Shown: piece by piece, positions 2,716 to 40,288 of the stretch
Numbering within the stretch: the stretch's first letter is position 1
How the letters are laid out: every line of letters begins with the position of its first letter
NCBI GenBank assembly: GCA_964016885.1
Contig: OZ024740.1
Coordinates: forward strand, 116,498,001-116,562,000
DNA from: Eledone cirrhosa
Taxonomy: Eukaryota
Length of the DNA: 64,000 nt
Direction: 5' to 3'
Notes under the pieces: generated by a model
The model's database searches: none
What the model was told of the DNA's origin: nothing
The model's input: only the letters and a program-made list of their open reading frames with translations
Position numbers and translations under genes: made by a program

Positions 2716-3052
2716 TCATATATATATATATACTAAAATTCTGCGATTGCTTGCTTACTTGTCTGTAATGGGGAAAATACTTTGAAAGGAAGTTGACCCT
2801 GAAATGGGGATACAAATGGAATAAAACAAGTTTTGTGTAAAGGACGGATTCCCGAGATATGGGGTTTTTCCAGGTACCTTCATAAACAGAGAAGGATAGA
2901 GAAAAAGAGATAGTGGTTGTGAGAGAGTAAATTGAGAGGGAGAGGAGAAGGAGAATGGGAGAGAGAGAGCTGATGGTGTTGTGTGTATATATATATGTGA
3001 GTGTATGTGTCTATGACCAGTGTATATAGATCACAGATGCCCACATATATAT

Positions 3053-3105
<53 letters not shown>

Positions 3106-3431
3106 CACATACACACGTATATATCTGGGCCTTCCAGTTTCATTTCACATATACATGTGTGTGTATATTTTAATTATTTAAAAATTATTTTTAAGTGAAC
3201 ATGATTTTAAAAGATATTTTGAAGTGAACATGACCCAACAGGTCTCGAGTGGTCTAGTATATATTTATGTACACACACATCCATATGGTGTATATAGACA
3301 GTTTTACAATGATAGTACATTTGAAAATCAAATCAAACCACATATTGAAATATATATTTATAGGTATATGGTTTAATTTTATTTTCAAGCATTTCTTCAT
3401 ATTAAACGTATTTATATATAACATTGTATAT

Positions 3432-4622
3432 ATTAGAAAGAAAGGATCTCAAAGTCAACATGACAAAGACTAAGGTCCTTGTAAGTAGACGAGAAAACAG
3501 AACCCAGATCCCCTCAGGGAAATGGCCTTGCTCAGTATGTAGGAAAGGTGTAGGTAGGAACTCCATTCTCTGCCCCAAATGCAAACAATGGGTACACAAG
3601 AGATGTAGCGGGATCTCAGGAAGCTTAATTAAGAATGTAGGCTTCACATGCAGCAGCTGTACTGGGACAGCAAGCAGCAAACAGCCACAGGAAACAAGTA
3701 CCACCAATCTCTGGGAGGGCTCTGTAGAAACAGTAGACAGCTTCTGCTACCTAGGTGACCGAATTAGCAGCGGAGGTGGGTGTTCAGAAAGTACAATAAC
3801 TAGGGTAAGAACGGGATGGAAGAAGTTTAGGGAACTACTACCACTGCTTGCTGCAAAAGGCTTCTCCCTCAGAATGAAAGGCAGACTGTATGATGCGTGT
3901 ATCCGAACAGCGATGTTGCATGGTAGTGAGACCTGGGCGCTGAAGGTGGAAGACTTACGTAGATTAGAGAGAAACGAAGCCTGCATGCTCCGATGGATGA
4001 GTAACAGTAATATACGTGAACGACAAAGCATAAATGAATTGAGAGAGAGACTGAGCATAAGAGGAATCAAATGCTGTGTGCAGGAGAGGCGGTTGCGCTG
4101 GTATGGACATGTGATGCGTATGAAGGATGACAGCTGCATAAAAAGGTGCAGAGCACTAGAAGTCGATGGAAACTGCGGAGTGGGGAGACCCAAGATGACC
4201 TGGGATGAGGTGATAAAAGCCGACCTTACCCAATTACACCTCTCAAAGGCAATGACACACGACCGTGACTTCTGGTGTCCTGCAGTAATACAGGGTACCC
4301 GACCTCCCATGGGTACAAGCTGAAGCATATAGACAATATGCCCCCACACCCCCCACCGCAAGGTGGTCGTGGAGGTGCCACGGCAAAAAAGCACCCAGCC
4401 CACACTGTAAAGTGGGCGTGTAGGCGCCACGAAAAAGCACCCAGCACTCACTGTAAATGAGGTTGGTGTTAGGAAGGGCATCCAGCTGTAGAAATCAAGC
4501 CAAATCAGTTCCTGTATGAGCAAGGCATGGTCAGCCGACCAGACACTGCCCACAACAGGACAACCCGTCTAACCCATGCTAGCGTGGAAGAACGGACGTA
4601 AAACGGTGATGATGATGATGAC
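3432..4622 (+). mobile_element. RTE-clade LINE, 5'-truncated, with open ORF C-terminus, PHD-like finger, structured 3' UTR and (GAT)n tail
   Basis: ORF 3424-4323 contains VDSFCYLG, LHGSETW, RRLRWYGHVMR and GRPKMTW. The element ends ...ggacgtaaaacggtgatgatgatg. Confidence 0.92.
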
Positions 4623-5206
4623 GATATTACCTTAAATCTGATTCTTTTCACTTTTATTGAGCTCTCTCACTAATCACTTTGTACAAAAAGTACTTTCAGT
4701 TTAGCTATGAAATATATATCCATATTACTATATATATATTTATGACTTACTGCTTCTGGTTGTCCATGGAATCCAATGATGACCATATTCTCCATTTGTG
4801 GATCCTTTGCTGACTGTACATATCACATATGTGAATTTTAAAGTTATTTTCCCTGTCTAAGAGGTAACTTTGACAGGTTTCATAAAGCTGGAGTTAACAA
4901 TGTCTGGCTTCTTACTCCTCATAGTAATTTTTGAAGCAATATTTTATGGCTGGATGCTCTTCCTAACATCAACCGTTTTAGTCACTTCTTATGACATACA
5001 AGGATATGGTGTACCTATTCTAAATTGGAGATACGCAAGACTATATATGCTAGCGTGGAAAATGGACGTTAAACGATGATATTGATGATGATGAGGATAA
5101 ATGTAAATATTTAGTTGGAGAGGTCAAGTTTTACTCTGTGTGCATGCTTCTTTTCTCATATCCCCATCCATCAGTAAGACTCACTGAAAAGGCAGTTATA
5201 GTATAA

Positions 5207-6450
5207 GTCCCTCAGCCGAAAGGAAGTAGTCACAGTTCTAGGACAGCATTCTTCACCATATGAGATGTCATCTGGTGTACCACAGGGATCTGTTCTTGGT
5301 CCTCTTTTGTTTGTGGCATATATTAATGACATAGATGCCAACTTACAGAATGCCACGGTACTAAAATATGCAGATGACATCAAGCTGTACCTTGAAATCA
5401 AAAGGACTGATCCTGAAATTTACAACTCTTTCCTACAATCAGACCTGGACACAATGCAGCAATGGATCACAGACTGGCAACTGAAGCTGGCTGTGGACAA
5501 GTGTACCACCATGCATTTTGGAAGGAAAAATCCAGCGTCCACATACTCCCTCCACAACACTGACATCAAAAAGTCCTCTTGTGAACGTGACCTGGGCATT
5601 ACTGTCAGCAACGATTTGCGTTGGACAAAGCATGTCTCTAAGATTGTCAAGAAGGCCGAGGGTGTCTTGGCATCACTCAGCAAGACCTTTGTTAGCCGCT
5701 CTCCAGCCATCTATTTAAAACTGTATACAGCTATGGTGCGACCACACTTGGAATTCGCATCATCAGTCTGGAACCCCTATCTTGCTCGGAACATTGACCT
5801 CCTGGAAACTGTTCAGAGACGTGCAACCAAGCGCATACCCTCCATCAGACACCTACCATACTCTGAATGCCTTGCTTCCCTGGGCATGGATTCATTGAAG
5901 CTCCGACGTCTGGCAGTGGACTTGGTGAATACCCACAAAGTTTTTAACCATCTCGCCAACTGCAACCCTGAGCGCCTCTTTGATCTCCATGTATCTAACA
6001 CACGTGGACATGCCTACAAGATAAGAAAACAGCACAGCTCCCATGACTTTCGCAGACATTTTTTCACGCTCAGAGTTGCTGAAACATGGAACAAACTGCC
6101 TGCGTCAATTGTTAGCTGCCGAGACACTGCATCCTTTAAGACACTCATGCTTCCCGAAATACGCCAAAACTACACCTGATGTGCCCCTTCCATACACATG
6201 CACACATGTGTGCACTGTTCATTTTACTGATGTTTGTGCATTGCCCTATGTACTGTACATGCACTTTTTTGATGGGTTGTGGTGCACCTGGGCACTGTGC
6301 ACAATATTTCATTATTGTTATTATTATATCATGACTCATACACTGTTTATTTTCCTGACATTTGTACATTATTCTATGTACTATACATGCACCTTTGATG
6401 AGTTGTAGTGCACCTGAGCACTGTACACAATAATTTCATTATTATTATTA
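5207..6450 (+). mobile_element. CR1-group LINE, 5'-truncated, open RT ORF 5265-6179, doubled 3' tail
   Basis: SGVPQGSVLGPLLF, YADD and TRGH...RHFF..RV...WNKLP motifs, a 3' stem-loop and an (ATT)n tail. Confidence 0.92.
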
Positions 6451-27995: not shown

Positions 27996-30083
27996 GTTGT
28001 GTCTGAATAAAATATGTGATGATCATAGTTGGAATGCCTTTGATCATATGCTTACTGAATGAGAAATGACCTGAAGCAATGAAAACAAAAACAAACAAAA
28101 AAACTCCAACAGCTCTATTATTTAATCCTAGACTAGTGGGAAAATACAAGCTGATAACACAAGGTAGGAGCCAGAAATTAGTTTGTTTTGGAAATAGTGT
28201 TTTGCAGCAGAAAAAACAAACAAACTGATATCCTACTCCTCTGTCTGTAATAAATACAGGGAGGCCAAAAAAAAGGTATACATATATTTATTAGAATGCT
28301 GTTGAAGTGTGTATGCATTTTTGGGGAACACACCGTACTTGCAATTTATTTCATATTTTGTGGTCATGATATACTTTATATGTTTCCCTGATAACTATTG
28401 CTTGATATGACAGGTAAAGTTTTAAATGTTTTCTTAGTTTTTTTTGTATTCTGTCAGACAGGATATCCAAATGTTGATGTCTTTTGTAGATTAATAGCAT
28501 AATTTTGAAATATTTTAACAGTTGCTATTTGCTAACATTGATTGTCTAACGTTCTTTTCCAAAATATCCTATCAATAACCTAAGTTTGTGAATGTTTTAA
28601 TTGATTTTCAAGGAATGTTGAAGGCAAGTGAGACTTGCAGCTTAAGTTTACTAAAAAGAAAAAAAAAAAAAGAAATGCATAAATTTTACAATTACAACAC
28701 TTCAAGAGCAAACACTAGACAAGCTAGAAATAAAATTCAAAATAGTAATTTCTAAAAGAAGTTGAACATATTCTTTATATTTGAGTATCTAAAAGGTGGT
28801 GGATTGGTAGAACTGATAGAGCCATTGCAGTATTTGTTCTGGCTCTTTATATTCTGAATTCAAATCCTGCTGAGGTCAACTTTGCCTTTCATCCTTCTGG
28901 AATCGATAAAATGAAGTTCCAGTCAAGTAGTGGGGTTGATTTAATTAACTTTGCCCTTCCCCCAAATTTGTTGACCTTGTGACTAAATTAGAAATCAATA
29001 TTCAAGCTTCTAGTAATCTACTGACTAAAGAGTTGCATTTTTGCCCCCTATCATTTGTGCAACACTTGTTTCTCACGAAGACACTTAACTCTCAATGGCT
29101 CAGTTTATTTTAACTGTACATAAGTATGGCTGTATTTTTGGTGGGGTTTACAATTTACTGCTGCTGTTAGCATGGTACAGTATAAATAATTGTCAAGTGT
29201 TTTGTTAGCATCATTGTTATTGTGGACTGGATCTGGAATAGACCATTATTTCCATGAAAAAGTAAAAGATGTCTTAACCCTTTAGCATTTGCATTACTTT
29301 ATGTTTGCTAATGTATTTTCACGGTAAAGGCTTTACTTCGTAATTATTTCACATAATATTGAATCTATGAGATTTTGATATTATTTATTTTGAGAACAAT
29401 ACCTAAACATCAGCATAAGTGGCCAGTTACAGCTGGTTTGAATAAAAAGAGGTAAGAGAATTCTGGCTGGATACGGCCGGTTTAAATGCTAAAGGGTTAA
29501 CCTACAAGACTCGCTTCCCTTTAACGTTCCTTGAAAATCAATAAAAACATTCATAAACTTAGGTTATTGATAGGATTTTTTGAAAAAGAACTAAATCTTC
29601 AAGATTAGACAATCAGCAGTATGAAGAGTAGGATAAACTTTAACAAATTAAATCACCTTCCTGTAGTGGTGGTAAATAAAAAATGTATGAAAGGAAAGAA
29701 GTTAAGCTTGAGAAGGAGACTGTATTTCAATTAGATTAGCGGTTCACTAACCAGAGTCTTCGTCTGATCCAGAGTGAAAAAAATGTCTAAGAATGACTGA
29801 TTATGAGTAATAGATCAAGACTTTCAACCTCATGAAAAATAAAACTCTCGATACTACAAAAACTGAAGCACTTCCATGCTTCCTGAAATTTGCTGACACT
29901 GCACCTGATATTCCCCCTTCATACACACACACATGAGTTTGTGTGTATATCATGACTCATAACTGTTCACTTTCCTGACACTTGTACATTATTCTATGTA
30001 CTATACATGCACCTTTGATGAGATGTAGTGCACCTGAACACTGTACACAATAATTTTCATTATTATTTTTTAAATATTTTCAG

Positions 30084-30349
30084 CCAGCAGTGAAATTTTA
30101 AATTTTAAAGAAATTTTTGAGAAAGCTGATCAACTTCATACAGCATATGAGACTTGTAAATTATATGATCTTCTGAAACCATATCAAAACTGTGAAGATG
30201 ACCAATTGTTGTGGCGCCTATCTCGAGCAGCCTATGATAAAGCAAAGAGAGAACACAACAAGGATGCACGGAAAACATTCATGTATGAATCTTATGGTTA
30301 TGCTAAAAGAGCTCTTGCATTAAATGACAAGAACTATGCATGTCACAAG
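30084..30349 (+). CDS. RMDN1: RMDN1 coding exon (266 nt)
   Basis: ttttcag acceptor and gtaaat donor. Encodes ...EIFEKADQLHTAYETCKLYDLLKPYQNCEDDQLLWRLSRAAYDKAK...YAKRALALNDKNYACHK, matching the RMD/FAM82 motifs LLWRLxRA and AKRAL...HKWYA. Confidence 0.93.
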
Positions 30350-31039
30350 GTAAATAATTGTTATTATTTAGAGATAAATTAATGGGTTATGTGGTGACAG
30401 ACAGAGTGGAATGTTAGACTGTCTAACAGAATTTAGTTTTGTCTTCTGTGTTCTTAGTTCACATCCTCCACATTTTACCAGTGGTATGCTGGAATATATT
30501 CAGTTAATTCTGTATACTTTGTAAAGTGCTTGACTCTTCAGTCACATCAAGGACGTGACAACCACTCTAGTCCTGGTGCCATGATAAAATGCTTCAATAC
30601 ACTTGTAACTTGGTTGGTATTAGGATAGGCATCCATCTATAAAAACCATATAAAAAAAATGGTACATGTCACAAATATCTGATCTTCTGATTTTGTCTAA
30701 AAGGAGAGTAACTGTGGTTAAATACTGACTTGGGCCATAATGACCTGTTAAATCCATGCCAACATTGAAAGCAGAGGTAAAATTATGAGGATTAACTATA
30801 CCTTCTCCTACAAACATTTGTCCTTTCTTCATTGGTAAGAATTCCTTATTTGATGATAAAAGAAAGGCCTAATAGTAGTTGTTGAATGTTAAGCCATTAT
30901 TACTTAATGTTGCTTTGTAAATGGAATATATTAAAAAAGGGTTTTCTGAATATACTTTTTTCATAAGCATAAAATATCTCCAAAGAAATACATTAGTAAT
31001 TTATTTATTTTCAATAACTTTTTGGAATCTTACTTTTAG

Positions 31040-38068: not shown

Positions 38069-38747
38069 TACCCCCTCTAACTTCTGATCTTGAATTTCAA
38101 TTTAATTGACTGCTCTCTTTTCCAAAATTTTGATTAAAAAGCATTATTAAGTCTTAATGTCCTGCACCACATCAAACTGCATTAGCAAAACATTCCTGAA
38201 AAATATAAAACTACTATGACAGCATCACATGACAAATTTAAGTCATTACTGTAATACTGTACATTGTCACAATGGTCTGTCCAGAAATAAAGATGCTATA
38301 AACTTTTGTATTAACAAACTCATTAGTTATTTTCTACTAAATCATTACAGGACATTAAAAGTTAATATTATTGGAATGGTGGAGAATAGCAAAATTGTAA
38401 GGCACTGAAATGTTTCACAACATTGAATCACCTTCATATTCTGAGTTGATGACTTTGCCTTTTATCCCACCCAGGTTGATAAAATATCAGTTAAGTAGTA
38501 GAGGGTTGCTTTAATCACCTACAATTCACCTCTAATGGTTGTGGCCTATATATTATCATTATCATTTTTCTAAGAAATGAGACTTACAGAAATGAAAGTT
38601 CACATCAAATGCTTAATAATATTTTGTATAATAGTGAATGAAATAAATATTATCATAGTTGATTCAATATCAACTCTTTCTTTCCTCTTCATTCCTCTAC
38701 AAGTATAATAATAATTGTTTCTACTTTTGGCACAAGACCAGCAATTA

Positions 38748-40288
38748 GAATAATAATAATGAAATATTGTGTACAGTGCTCAGGTGCACTACAACCCATC
38801 AAAAGTGTATGTATAGTACATAGAGTAATGTACAAATGTCAGGAAAATGAACAGTGCATGAGTCATGATATACACGTGTGCATGTGTATGGAAGGGGGAC
38901 ATCAGGTGTAGTTTTTGTGAATTTCGGGAAGCATGAGGGTTTTAAAGGATCCAGTGTCTCGGCAGCTAACAACTGACGCAGGCAGTTTGTTCCATGCTTC
39001 AGCAACTCTAAGCGTGACAAAATGTTTCCGAAAGTCATGGGAGCTGTGCTGTTTTCTGACTTTGTAGGCATGTCACGTGTGTTAGATACATGGAGATCAA
39101 AAAGGTGCTCAGGGTTGTTGTTGGCGAGATGGTTAATAACTTTGTGGGTGTTTACCAAGTCCATTGCCAGACGTCGGAGCTTCAATGAATCAATGCCCAG
39201 AGAAGCAAGGCGTTCAGAGTATGGTAGGTATGCACTTGGTTGCACGTCTCTGAACAGTTTCCAGGAGGTCAATGTTCTGAGCAAGATAGGCGTTCCAGAC
39301 TGATGATGCGAATTCCAAGTGTGGTCGTACCATAGCTGTATACAGCTTTAAATAGATGGCTGGAGAACGGCTAACAAAAGTCTTGCTGAGTGAACCAAGA
39401 CACCCTTGGCCTTCTTCACAATTTTAGAGATGTGCTTTGTCCAACGCAAATCGCTGCTGACAGTAATGCCCAGGTCACGTTCACAAGAGGAGTTCTTGAT
39501 ACCAGTGTTGTGGAGGGAGTATGTGGATGCTGGATTTTTCCTCCCAAAATGCATGGTGGTACACTTGTCCACAGCCAGCTTCAGTTGCCAGTCTGTGATC
39601 CATTGCTGCATTGTGTCCAGGTCTGATTGTAGGAAAGAGTTGTAGATTTCAGGATCTGTCCTTTTGATTTCAAGGTACAGCTTGATGTCATCTGCATATT
39701 TCAGTACCGTGGTATTCTTTAAGTTGGCATCTATGTCATTAATATATGCCACAAACAAAAGGGGACCAAGAACAGATCCCTGTGGTACACCAGATGAGAT
39801 CTCATATGGTGAAGAATGCTGTCCTAGAACCGTGACTACCTCTTTTCGGCTGAGAATGAAGGATTTCAACCAGTTAAAAAGATCATCCTTCACACCCATT
39901 GCAGAGAGTTTCACCATAAGTCTTTTGTGTGGCACAGAATTAAAAGCCTTAGCGAAGTCAAGGTAAACAACATCCACCCATGAGCCGCTGTCAGTGATCC
40001 GGGTAATGTCTTCAAGGAACTCGATAAGCTGATCATAGCAGCTGGAGTTAGGGATAAATCCAAATTGCGAGGGCCGGATGAGGCTGTGAGAGCTCCAGAA
40101 GTTCCAAAGTGTTTCTCTGACACAGGATTCCATCAGTCTGGCAATACAGCTAGTAAGACTGACTGGACGATAGTTGACAGGTGACGTGCGGTCGCCCTTT
40201 TTGAACAGGGGAATGACACTGGGAGTTTTCTACTGCTCCAGAGTAGCACCATTGTTGAGACGTATTGAAAGAAGAAAGAAAGCTGCTC
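38748..40288 (-). mobile_element. CR1-group LINE 3' part (same family), frameshifted, inserted into a SINE in an RMDN1 intron
   Basis: ORFs 39348-40133 and 38799-39284, with YLDFAKAF and YADD. Confidence 0.92.

Follow-up and report, generated by a model that had tools for sequence, protein, structure and literature searches.

A clustered A>G signature shared by a double-tailed CR1-like LINE subfamily of Eledone cirrhosa probably traces back to an ADAR-edited founder RNA

RNA edits are commonly seen as non-heritable, and the editing of repeats as a brake on those repeats. Write-back of edited RNA into DNA has already been reported, and its closest described example comes from L1 in cultured human cells, where ADAR-edited processed pseudogenes accounted for 3 of 235 insertions (PMC11702581, bioRxiv 2024). 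As in the case presented here, a LINE reverse transcriptase writes edited RNA to chromosomes and leaves clustered 3′ UTR changes of a single type. As that report describes them, the L1-made pseudogenes are somatic, induced and derived from passenger mRNAs, the duplex being formed by inverted Alu repeats, whereas here it would be the LINE's own tail that was edited, inherited and amplified as a subfamily. In this line, the A-to-G hypermutation of RAV-1, ALV and HIV-1 has been attributed to ADAR (work cited in PMC2790459), with sense-strand A>G clusters that pass through reverse transcription and a 5′ neighbour preference, both of them points of comparison for the case below; those are exogenous LTR viruses in infected cells, in contrast with a germline non-LTR subfamily. 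Deaminase marks fixed in genomic retroelements, and recognized as strand-biased clusters against a subfamily consensus, have likewise been described for APOBEC, which edits LTR retrotransposon DNA (PMC4866542), although the marks in that account are G>A changes made on the cDNA of vertebrate LTR elements and invertebrates served as the negative control. The filter of that work, which takes changes away from the subfamily consensus, would likely miss an edit that has turned consensus itself, and the same would probably hold for any consensus-based scan for editing scars, because in such cases the edit becomes the consensus. At the RNA level, the 3′ ends of chicken CR1 elements pair with nearby inverted 3′ fragments and are heavily edited (PMC5625713), repeats are hyper-edited in coleoids, and hyper-editing in octopus is very high (PMC9068888). 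Edited CR1 3′ ends and a depletion of 5′ G would be points in common with our case, but the editing described in the relevant passages of these two reports was seen in RNA, and no write-back to DNA is mentioned there.

Our search of titles and abstract openings retrieved none describing an edited RNA that founded a LINE subfamily. Since write-back has been reported for L1 pseudogenes and retroviruses, what follows is a case study of seven sites and not a new mechanism, and the distinguishing point seems to be that the edited molecule founded an amplifying subfamily.

The double-tailed copy and its element

The stretch of DNA analysed, hereafter the window, comprises 64,000 nucleotides of the forward strand of contig OZ024740.1 of E. 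cirrhosa, and positions refer to it unless they are given as ref positions, which are those of the full-length copy L189. Between 5211 and 6450 (+ strand) lies a 5′-truncated member of a double-tailed CR1-like LINE subfamily, which belongs to its youngest grade (T4) and is 98-99.7% identical to 29 other loci. Its first part (5211..6179, +) encodes the 3′ portion of ORF2, with reverse transcriptase and C-terminus (open frame 5202-6179; RVT_1 E 8e-17), and the TGA stop codon maps at 6177-6179. Longer relatives among the fetched loci extend upstream of 5211, and the idea that this position was the fixed 5′ start of a non-autonomous element was rejected, as it is the truncation point of this copy.

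The original prediction described two 3′ tails in tandem (6211-6325 and 6326-6450), and these are real. The inner one (tail 1; 6180..6310, +) corresponds to the 3′ UTR of the element itself and has lost 14 nt immediately upstream of 6210; it is followed by an inner (ATT)n array (6311..6325, +) that a later A>G at 6317 interrupts. Near its end, a terminal hairpin region (6281..6300, +), with a 5-bp stem and a 6-nt loop in the unedited form, carries G at 6281, 6291 and 6299; the hairpin was predicted in the homologous part of tail 2, and that of tail 1 may be a recognition site for the reverse transcriptase. The outer tail (tail 2; 6326..6450, +) is unedited and corresponds in sequence to the 3′ end of P, a single-tailed family of greater age; it terminates in (ATT)n, and its single lineage change is C>T at 6348.

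The inner tail has G at 6238, 6243, 6255, 6281, 6291, 6299 and 6317, positions that are A in tail 2 as well as in the window's copies at 38.7 kb and 29.9 kb, and six of these seven positions are preceded by T, 6291 being the exception with a 5′ G; both observations of the original prediction are thereby confirmed. Its list of changes was incomplete, since A>G at 6183, 6210, 6261 and 6275 becomes visible when S*, the nearest single-tailed sister grade, is the comparator; against S* the sole substitution of another type in the inner tail is C>A at 6226. Five of the positions first listed (6238, 6243, 6255, 6281 and 6291) belong, together with 6210 and 6261, to the founding step of the subfamily, and 6299 and 6317 are later, as are A>G at 6183 and 6275 and the C>A at 6226. 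The two comparators in the window are a single-tailed A-type relative of grade Sc (38743..40285, -; 92% identical) and a short copy of the older family resembling tail 2 (29875..30070, +; 94%).

The full-length element measures about 5.3 kb. In L184, a T4 copy like that of the window, a 498-aa ORF1 frame with a Cys/His-rich N-terminal part and without any Pfam match at E 0.05 is accompanied by an open 957-aa ORF2, in which Exo_endo_phos (E 5e-15) precedes RVT_1 (E 4e-36) and other Pfam families are absent. In the CR1 group, ORF1 has a PHD-type zinc finger or an esterase. The 3′ ends consist of (ATT)n instead of poly(A), and the 5′ ends are many and varied, as in 5′ truncation. CR1-like thus appears a fair label, based on the original assignment and on the ORF2 with APE-type endonuclease and reverse transcriptase, the (ATT)n end and the 5′ truncation. 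In LINEs of the stringent type, the protein recognizes a 3′ tail with a stem-loop and a short tandem repeat (PMC3747384); the conserved outer tail fits that description, and unlike the tails described there the present one is doubled and derived from two families, its recognition being presumed.

The G states as subfamily characters

In the 3.0 Gb assembly of E. cirrhosa, the best 40 matches to the window copy are 99-100% identical to it, and all 30 loci fetched from among them (98-100% identical) carry both tails and the G's. Exact genomic matches number 476 for the youngest G-type tail motif (with G at 6299) and 1,646 for a G-type motif of any grade (without it), and 785 and 193 for two A-type single-tail motifs and 3,350 for the tail-2 motif, all of them counts that may include duplicated segments. 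Contigs of sequencing run X19, which may come from the assembly's own sample, show no G>A at 6238, 6243, 6255, 6281 or 6291, and one contig of run X23, from another study, covers 5900-6422 including the double tail. An assembly artefact, which had been named as a possible objection, was rejected on the grounds of this recurrence and of the agreement with the contigs of both runs.

The window copy is therefore an ordinary daughter of a double-tailed CR1-like LINE subfamily. The original prediction saw in it the direct fossil of a freshly edited RNA, and this part of it failed, because the 30 loci share both tails and the G's, so that the G variants define a common subfamily. That this very copy records one hyper-edited RNA is now extremely improbable: the G's and their 5′ T context are real, yet the 476 and 1,646 exact matches and the 30 fetched loci speak against it. 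The proposal of an edited LINE RNA that later integrated thus falls for the window copy, but it probably holds one level up, at the passage from a single-tailed parent to the double-tailed subfamily.

The A>G burst at the founding step

To follow this passage, 483 loci mapped to L189 were reduced by their shared 3′ flanks to 379 unique insertions, 343 of which were graded; the other 36 were set aside as tail-2-only, less than 90% identical, unassigned or recombinant (L125, L137, L138, L250, L035, L361 and two window copies), and the ORF1 repeat region (ref 1370-1600) and the ATT arrays were excluded from the counts. The single-tailed grades Sc, So and S* contain 24, 29 and 40 copies, and the double-tailed grades T0, T1, T2, T3B and T4 contain 43, 96, 28, 30 and 53. 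Private divergence, measured on rare variants only, falls from about 1% in the single-tailed grades to less than 0.1% in T3B and T4, so that the order of the grades is also an order of age. In the resulting ladder, grades are taken as ancestors and descendants, which makes a few of its reversals artefactual.

At each of the seven founding sites, A is found in 89-93 of the 93 single-tailed copies and G in 218-246 of the 250 G-tail copies, in a sample enriched for A states by targeted fetching; in the older P family, six of these sites are A. When the 40 S* copies are compared with the 43 T0 copies, the majority base is identical throughout ref 2888-5056, and then seven A>G changes appear within 82 nt, affecting 7 of the 27 A's of the tail, with no other substitution (an alignment-ambiguous T in a T run was disregarded). 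Over the last 2,121 nt of ORF2, none of 153 sites where A>G would be silent had changed, as against 7/27 in the tail (Fisher p 8e-7), a pattern that release from constraint does not yield by itself. That all seven founding changes would be A>G has a chance of 1e-4 at the lineage's own A>G share. Their clustering has p values from 2e-5 to 5e-4 with a 4-fold weight for the UTR; these are post hoc figures for only seven sites, examined after the original prediction had singled them out.

Further upstream (ref 1600-2887), S* and T0 show eight majority differences of mixed type, several of them polymorphic (4-9 copies per group), and the S* copy L303 shares three T0 states. An ORF2 tree of 66 long copies places the oldest G-tail copies and S* copies in one unresolved fork within the A-tail diversity; it requires 3 label changes, of which strongly supported branches force only 1, and it would fit a near-zero branch, being by itself no proof of one origin. 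A single origin is suggested instead by what the copies have in common, namely the G's, the junction with tail 2 and two C>A changes, present at ref 2135 in 6/6 and at ref 2294 in 5/6 T0 copies. At 6261 the G is shared with tail 2 and could stem from conversion.

Singleton mutations in the family are strand-symmetric (139 A>G and 140 T>C of 1,451). Against this background, the original prediction had admitted that T>C might prove equally frequent on the same strand, which is not what the lineage of the inner tail shows, with 11 A>G, 0 T>C and 2 other changes, or 11/13 A>G compared with 31/112 in the ORFs (Fisher p 1e-4). CpG decay and GC-biased conversion were rejected because the changes are A>G only and on one strand. 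In the ORFs, too, A>G is the most frequent change of the lineage (T>C 19, p 0.10), and among 141 changes of the two youngest grades there are 21 A>G and 12 T>C, an excess to be taken as a hint only.

Across the 343 copies (444,806 bases), private A>G clusters occur in two, and T>C clusters of at least four changes in none. The copy L226 (G000:C2:350960200-350965600) bears, in 73 nt close to where ORF1 meets ORF2 (ref 2116-2188), nine A>G changes together with one T>G, with 5′ A or T at all nine A>G sites, and it is the sort of single edited copy that had been envisaged for the window. The copy L106 (G000:C1:63382703-63385733), of the youngest grade and free of further private changes, carries four A>G within the 40 nt of ref 4916-4955, where ORF2 ends. 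Clusters of this size are not confined to A>G, three C>T clusters of four being present in old copies. With regard to sequence context, the 5′ neighbour preference of ADAR follows A=U>C>G (PMC2790459) and 5′ G is depleted in edited sites (PMC5625713). When the three A>G clusters are pooled, A or T stands 5′ of 17 of the 20 sites, compared with 151/311 private A>G (p 0.002), and 5′ G precedes 1/31 lineage A>G in the ORFs as against 54/283 (p 0.024); as far as these two sources describe the preference, the enrichment and the depletion match it. Within the tail, and for the founding seven only, the 5′ T enrichment is weak, at 5/10 vs 2/17 (p 0.065), and the disfavoured 5′ G is found at one founding site (6291) and one later site (6275). 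The deaminase domain A_deamin (PF02137), which is shared with ADAT/ADAD, is encoded at four places in the genome (best E 1e-61).

A duplex partner was looked for on several levels. The tail folds no better than shuffled sequences (z-scores from -0.6 to -1.2), no inverted repeat spanning it was found inside the element, and the flanks fetched for L226 and L106 contained no inverted partner. A duplex between both tails was rejected, its energy of -47.8 kcal/mol being no better than the -46.4 kcal/mol of unrelated windows of the element. In an S* copy, pairing predictions for the seven sites give three paired at ≥0.98, two unpaired and two intermediate. The original prediction located the editing around the 3′ stem-loop, which fits the position of 6281 and 6291, in or beside the terminal hairpin, and does not extend to the other founding sites or to the fold as a whole. 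The partner would likely have been an inverted 3′ fragment near the source locus, by analogy with the pairing described for chicken CR1 (PMC5625713).

Origin and later history of the two tails

Judged from the sequences compared, the founder was probably an ADAR-edited RNA that retrotransposed, acquired a further, unedited tail and went on to serve as a source element. Target-primed reverse transcription would have read the inosines of a full-length S* transcript as G, and an unedited second tail would have been gained in the same event, by template switch at the shared TAT, or soon after founding, for instance by a short insertion into the ATT array. This second tail would then have become the working 3′ end, and the edited inner tail would therefore have been carried along and amplified to some 1,600 copies. 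Freed from constraint, the inner tail would have retained more A>G from later rounds while the outer tail stayed conserved. If an edited RNA did found a successful subfamily, as is likely, the editing brake can leak and the leak can be amplified; moreover, the element offers a built-in test, in that an edited tail adjoins an unedited one, the grades form a dated series and there are copies whose ORFs are open. A broader and more tentative extension, possible at best, is that ADAR acts as a standing source of mutation: the 3′ tail of the founder would have been damaged, capture of the second tail would have rescued it, and edits including some coding A>G of ORF2 would have been amplified. Were this true, host defence would drive the birth of a retrotransposon subfamily, which here numbers about 1,600 copies in the germline.

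Strand-specific A>G of this kind would also be expected from a one-event burst of misincorporation without ADAR, whether the reverse transcriptase of the element or RNA polymerase was responsible, which we hold to be unlikely. The leading place of A>G among ORF lineage changes, the 21 A>G to 12 T>C in the youngest copies and the searches that found no duplex are all in its favour, but it would have to produce dense clusters (7/27 A's; 9 in 73 nt) next to kilobases in which no majority base differs, and the enrichment of 5′ A/T and depletion of 5′ G fit ADAR, as its preference is given in the sources cited (PMC5625713, PMC2790459). A somewhat smaller likelihood attaches to a slow process, in which the inner tail lost constraint after the capture of tail 2 and A>G accrued singly in rare, unsampled source copies. 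The changes at 6183, 6275, 6299 and 6317 did arise stepwise, A is kept in all single-tailed families, as constraint predicts, and double-tailed copies that are partly A exist (L157, L177, L324, L394). Nevertheless, some of the latter bear the later C>A at 6226 and so seem conversion tracts and not ancestors, silent changes would be expected in ORF2 and are 0 in about 470 silent sites over 2,121 nt, and the fact that all seven changes are A>G is left without explanation. Furthermore, the unedited double-tailed precursor, with an all-A tail 1 and a P-type tail 2, was absent from the 30 loci of a targeted search in which 40 of 1,195 candidates were scored. Import of a G-rich segment from a diverged family by recombination or gene conversion is quite improbable. 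Mosaic and collapsed copies are frequent in this family (L125, L135, L137, L324), yet letters specific to S* persist between the G's (T at 6231, the T run, the 3′ end), a diverged donor would be expected to add changes of other types, and a G-type single-tailed family was looked for and not found.

Returning to the preferred reading of an edited founder RNA, the steps after founding can be followed along the grades. The inner tail gained G at 6317 together with a second ATT repeat, then at 6299, 6275 and 6183, and T3B has one more A>G; the later events of other types are the C>A at 6226 and the 14-nt deletion. In tail 2, A>G at the site homologous to 6210 is present in 10/206 copies. Tail 2 matches along its whole length a sub-branch of the older single-tailed family (L423, L430), about half of 30 loci with the tail-2 motif being single-tailed copies of that family, and the junction lies at TAT within the ATT array. 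Its gain is compatible with a switch of template in the course of reverse transcription and also with a short insertion at a later time. Tail 2 follows the G tail in 36/40 copies of a sample drawn mainly from the older grades, where a 6-kb insertion has probably separated the two in one further copy, and in 70/70 copies of the young grades. The G tail forms the 3′ end in 3/40 of the former vs 0/70 of the latter (p 0.046), which indicates that the edited tail was not wholly dead.

Other observations concern the plasticity of the family. Six double-tailed copies (L157, L177, L324, L385, L390 and L394) have runs of A, often contiguous, at some founding sites, likely due to exchange with A-type copies, either through gene conversion or through template switching. 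At the step from T0 to T1, three A>G arise jointly within 5 nt of ORF2 (ref 2941, 2942 and 2945) and are a possible second inherited mini-cluster of editing, in coding sequence. The ATT array between the tails is an insertion hot spot, often interrupted by other elements, some of about 6 kb (L152/L344, L159, L162, L169, L179, L233, L237, L239), and L250 and L280 represent separate, independent tandem insertions. At G000:C28:124.78-126.35 Mb (L137-L150), a collapsed single-tail recombinant has the start of tail 1 fused to tail 2, its unit being repeated at least 14 times with the same flank (motif matches: 19 in C28 and 2 in C1185). In run X24, from organism I, a very abundant family matches almost exactly the end of ORF2 in its T2 form and the beginning of tail 1, with a loose end reading like tail 2 near L189:7101 (on L189:6825-7330, window:5900-6470; short contigs only); this family may have arisen by collapse from the edited lineage and be present in another organism through close relationship or transfer. 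Elsewhere in the window, a 305-aa open frame at 3406-4323 (+) with a PHD finger (E 8e-7) is presumably the 3′ part of an RTE-type LINE, and the segment at about 30130-30350 (+) resembles by eye a host coding exon ending in a GT donor.
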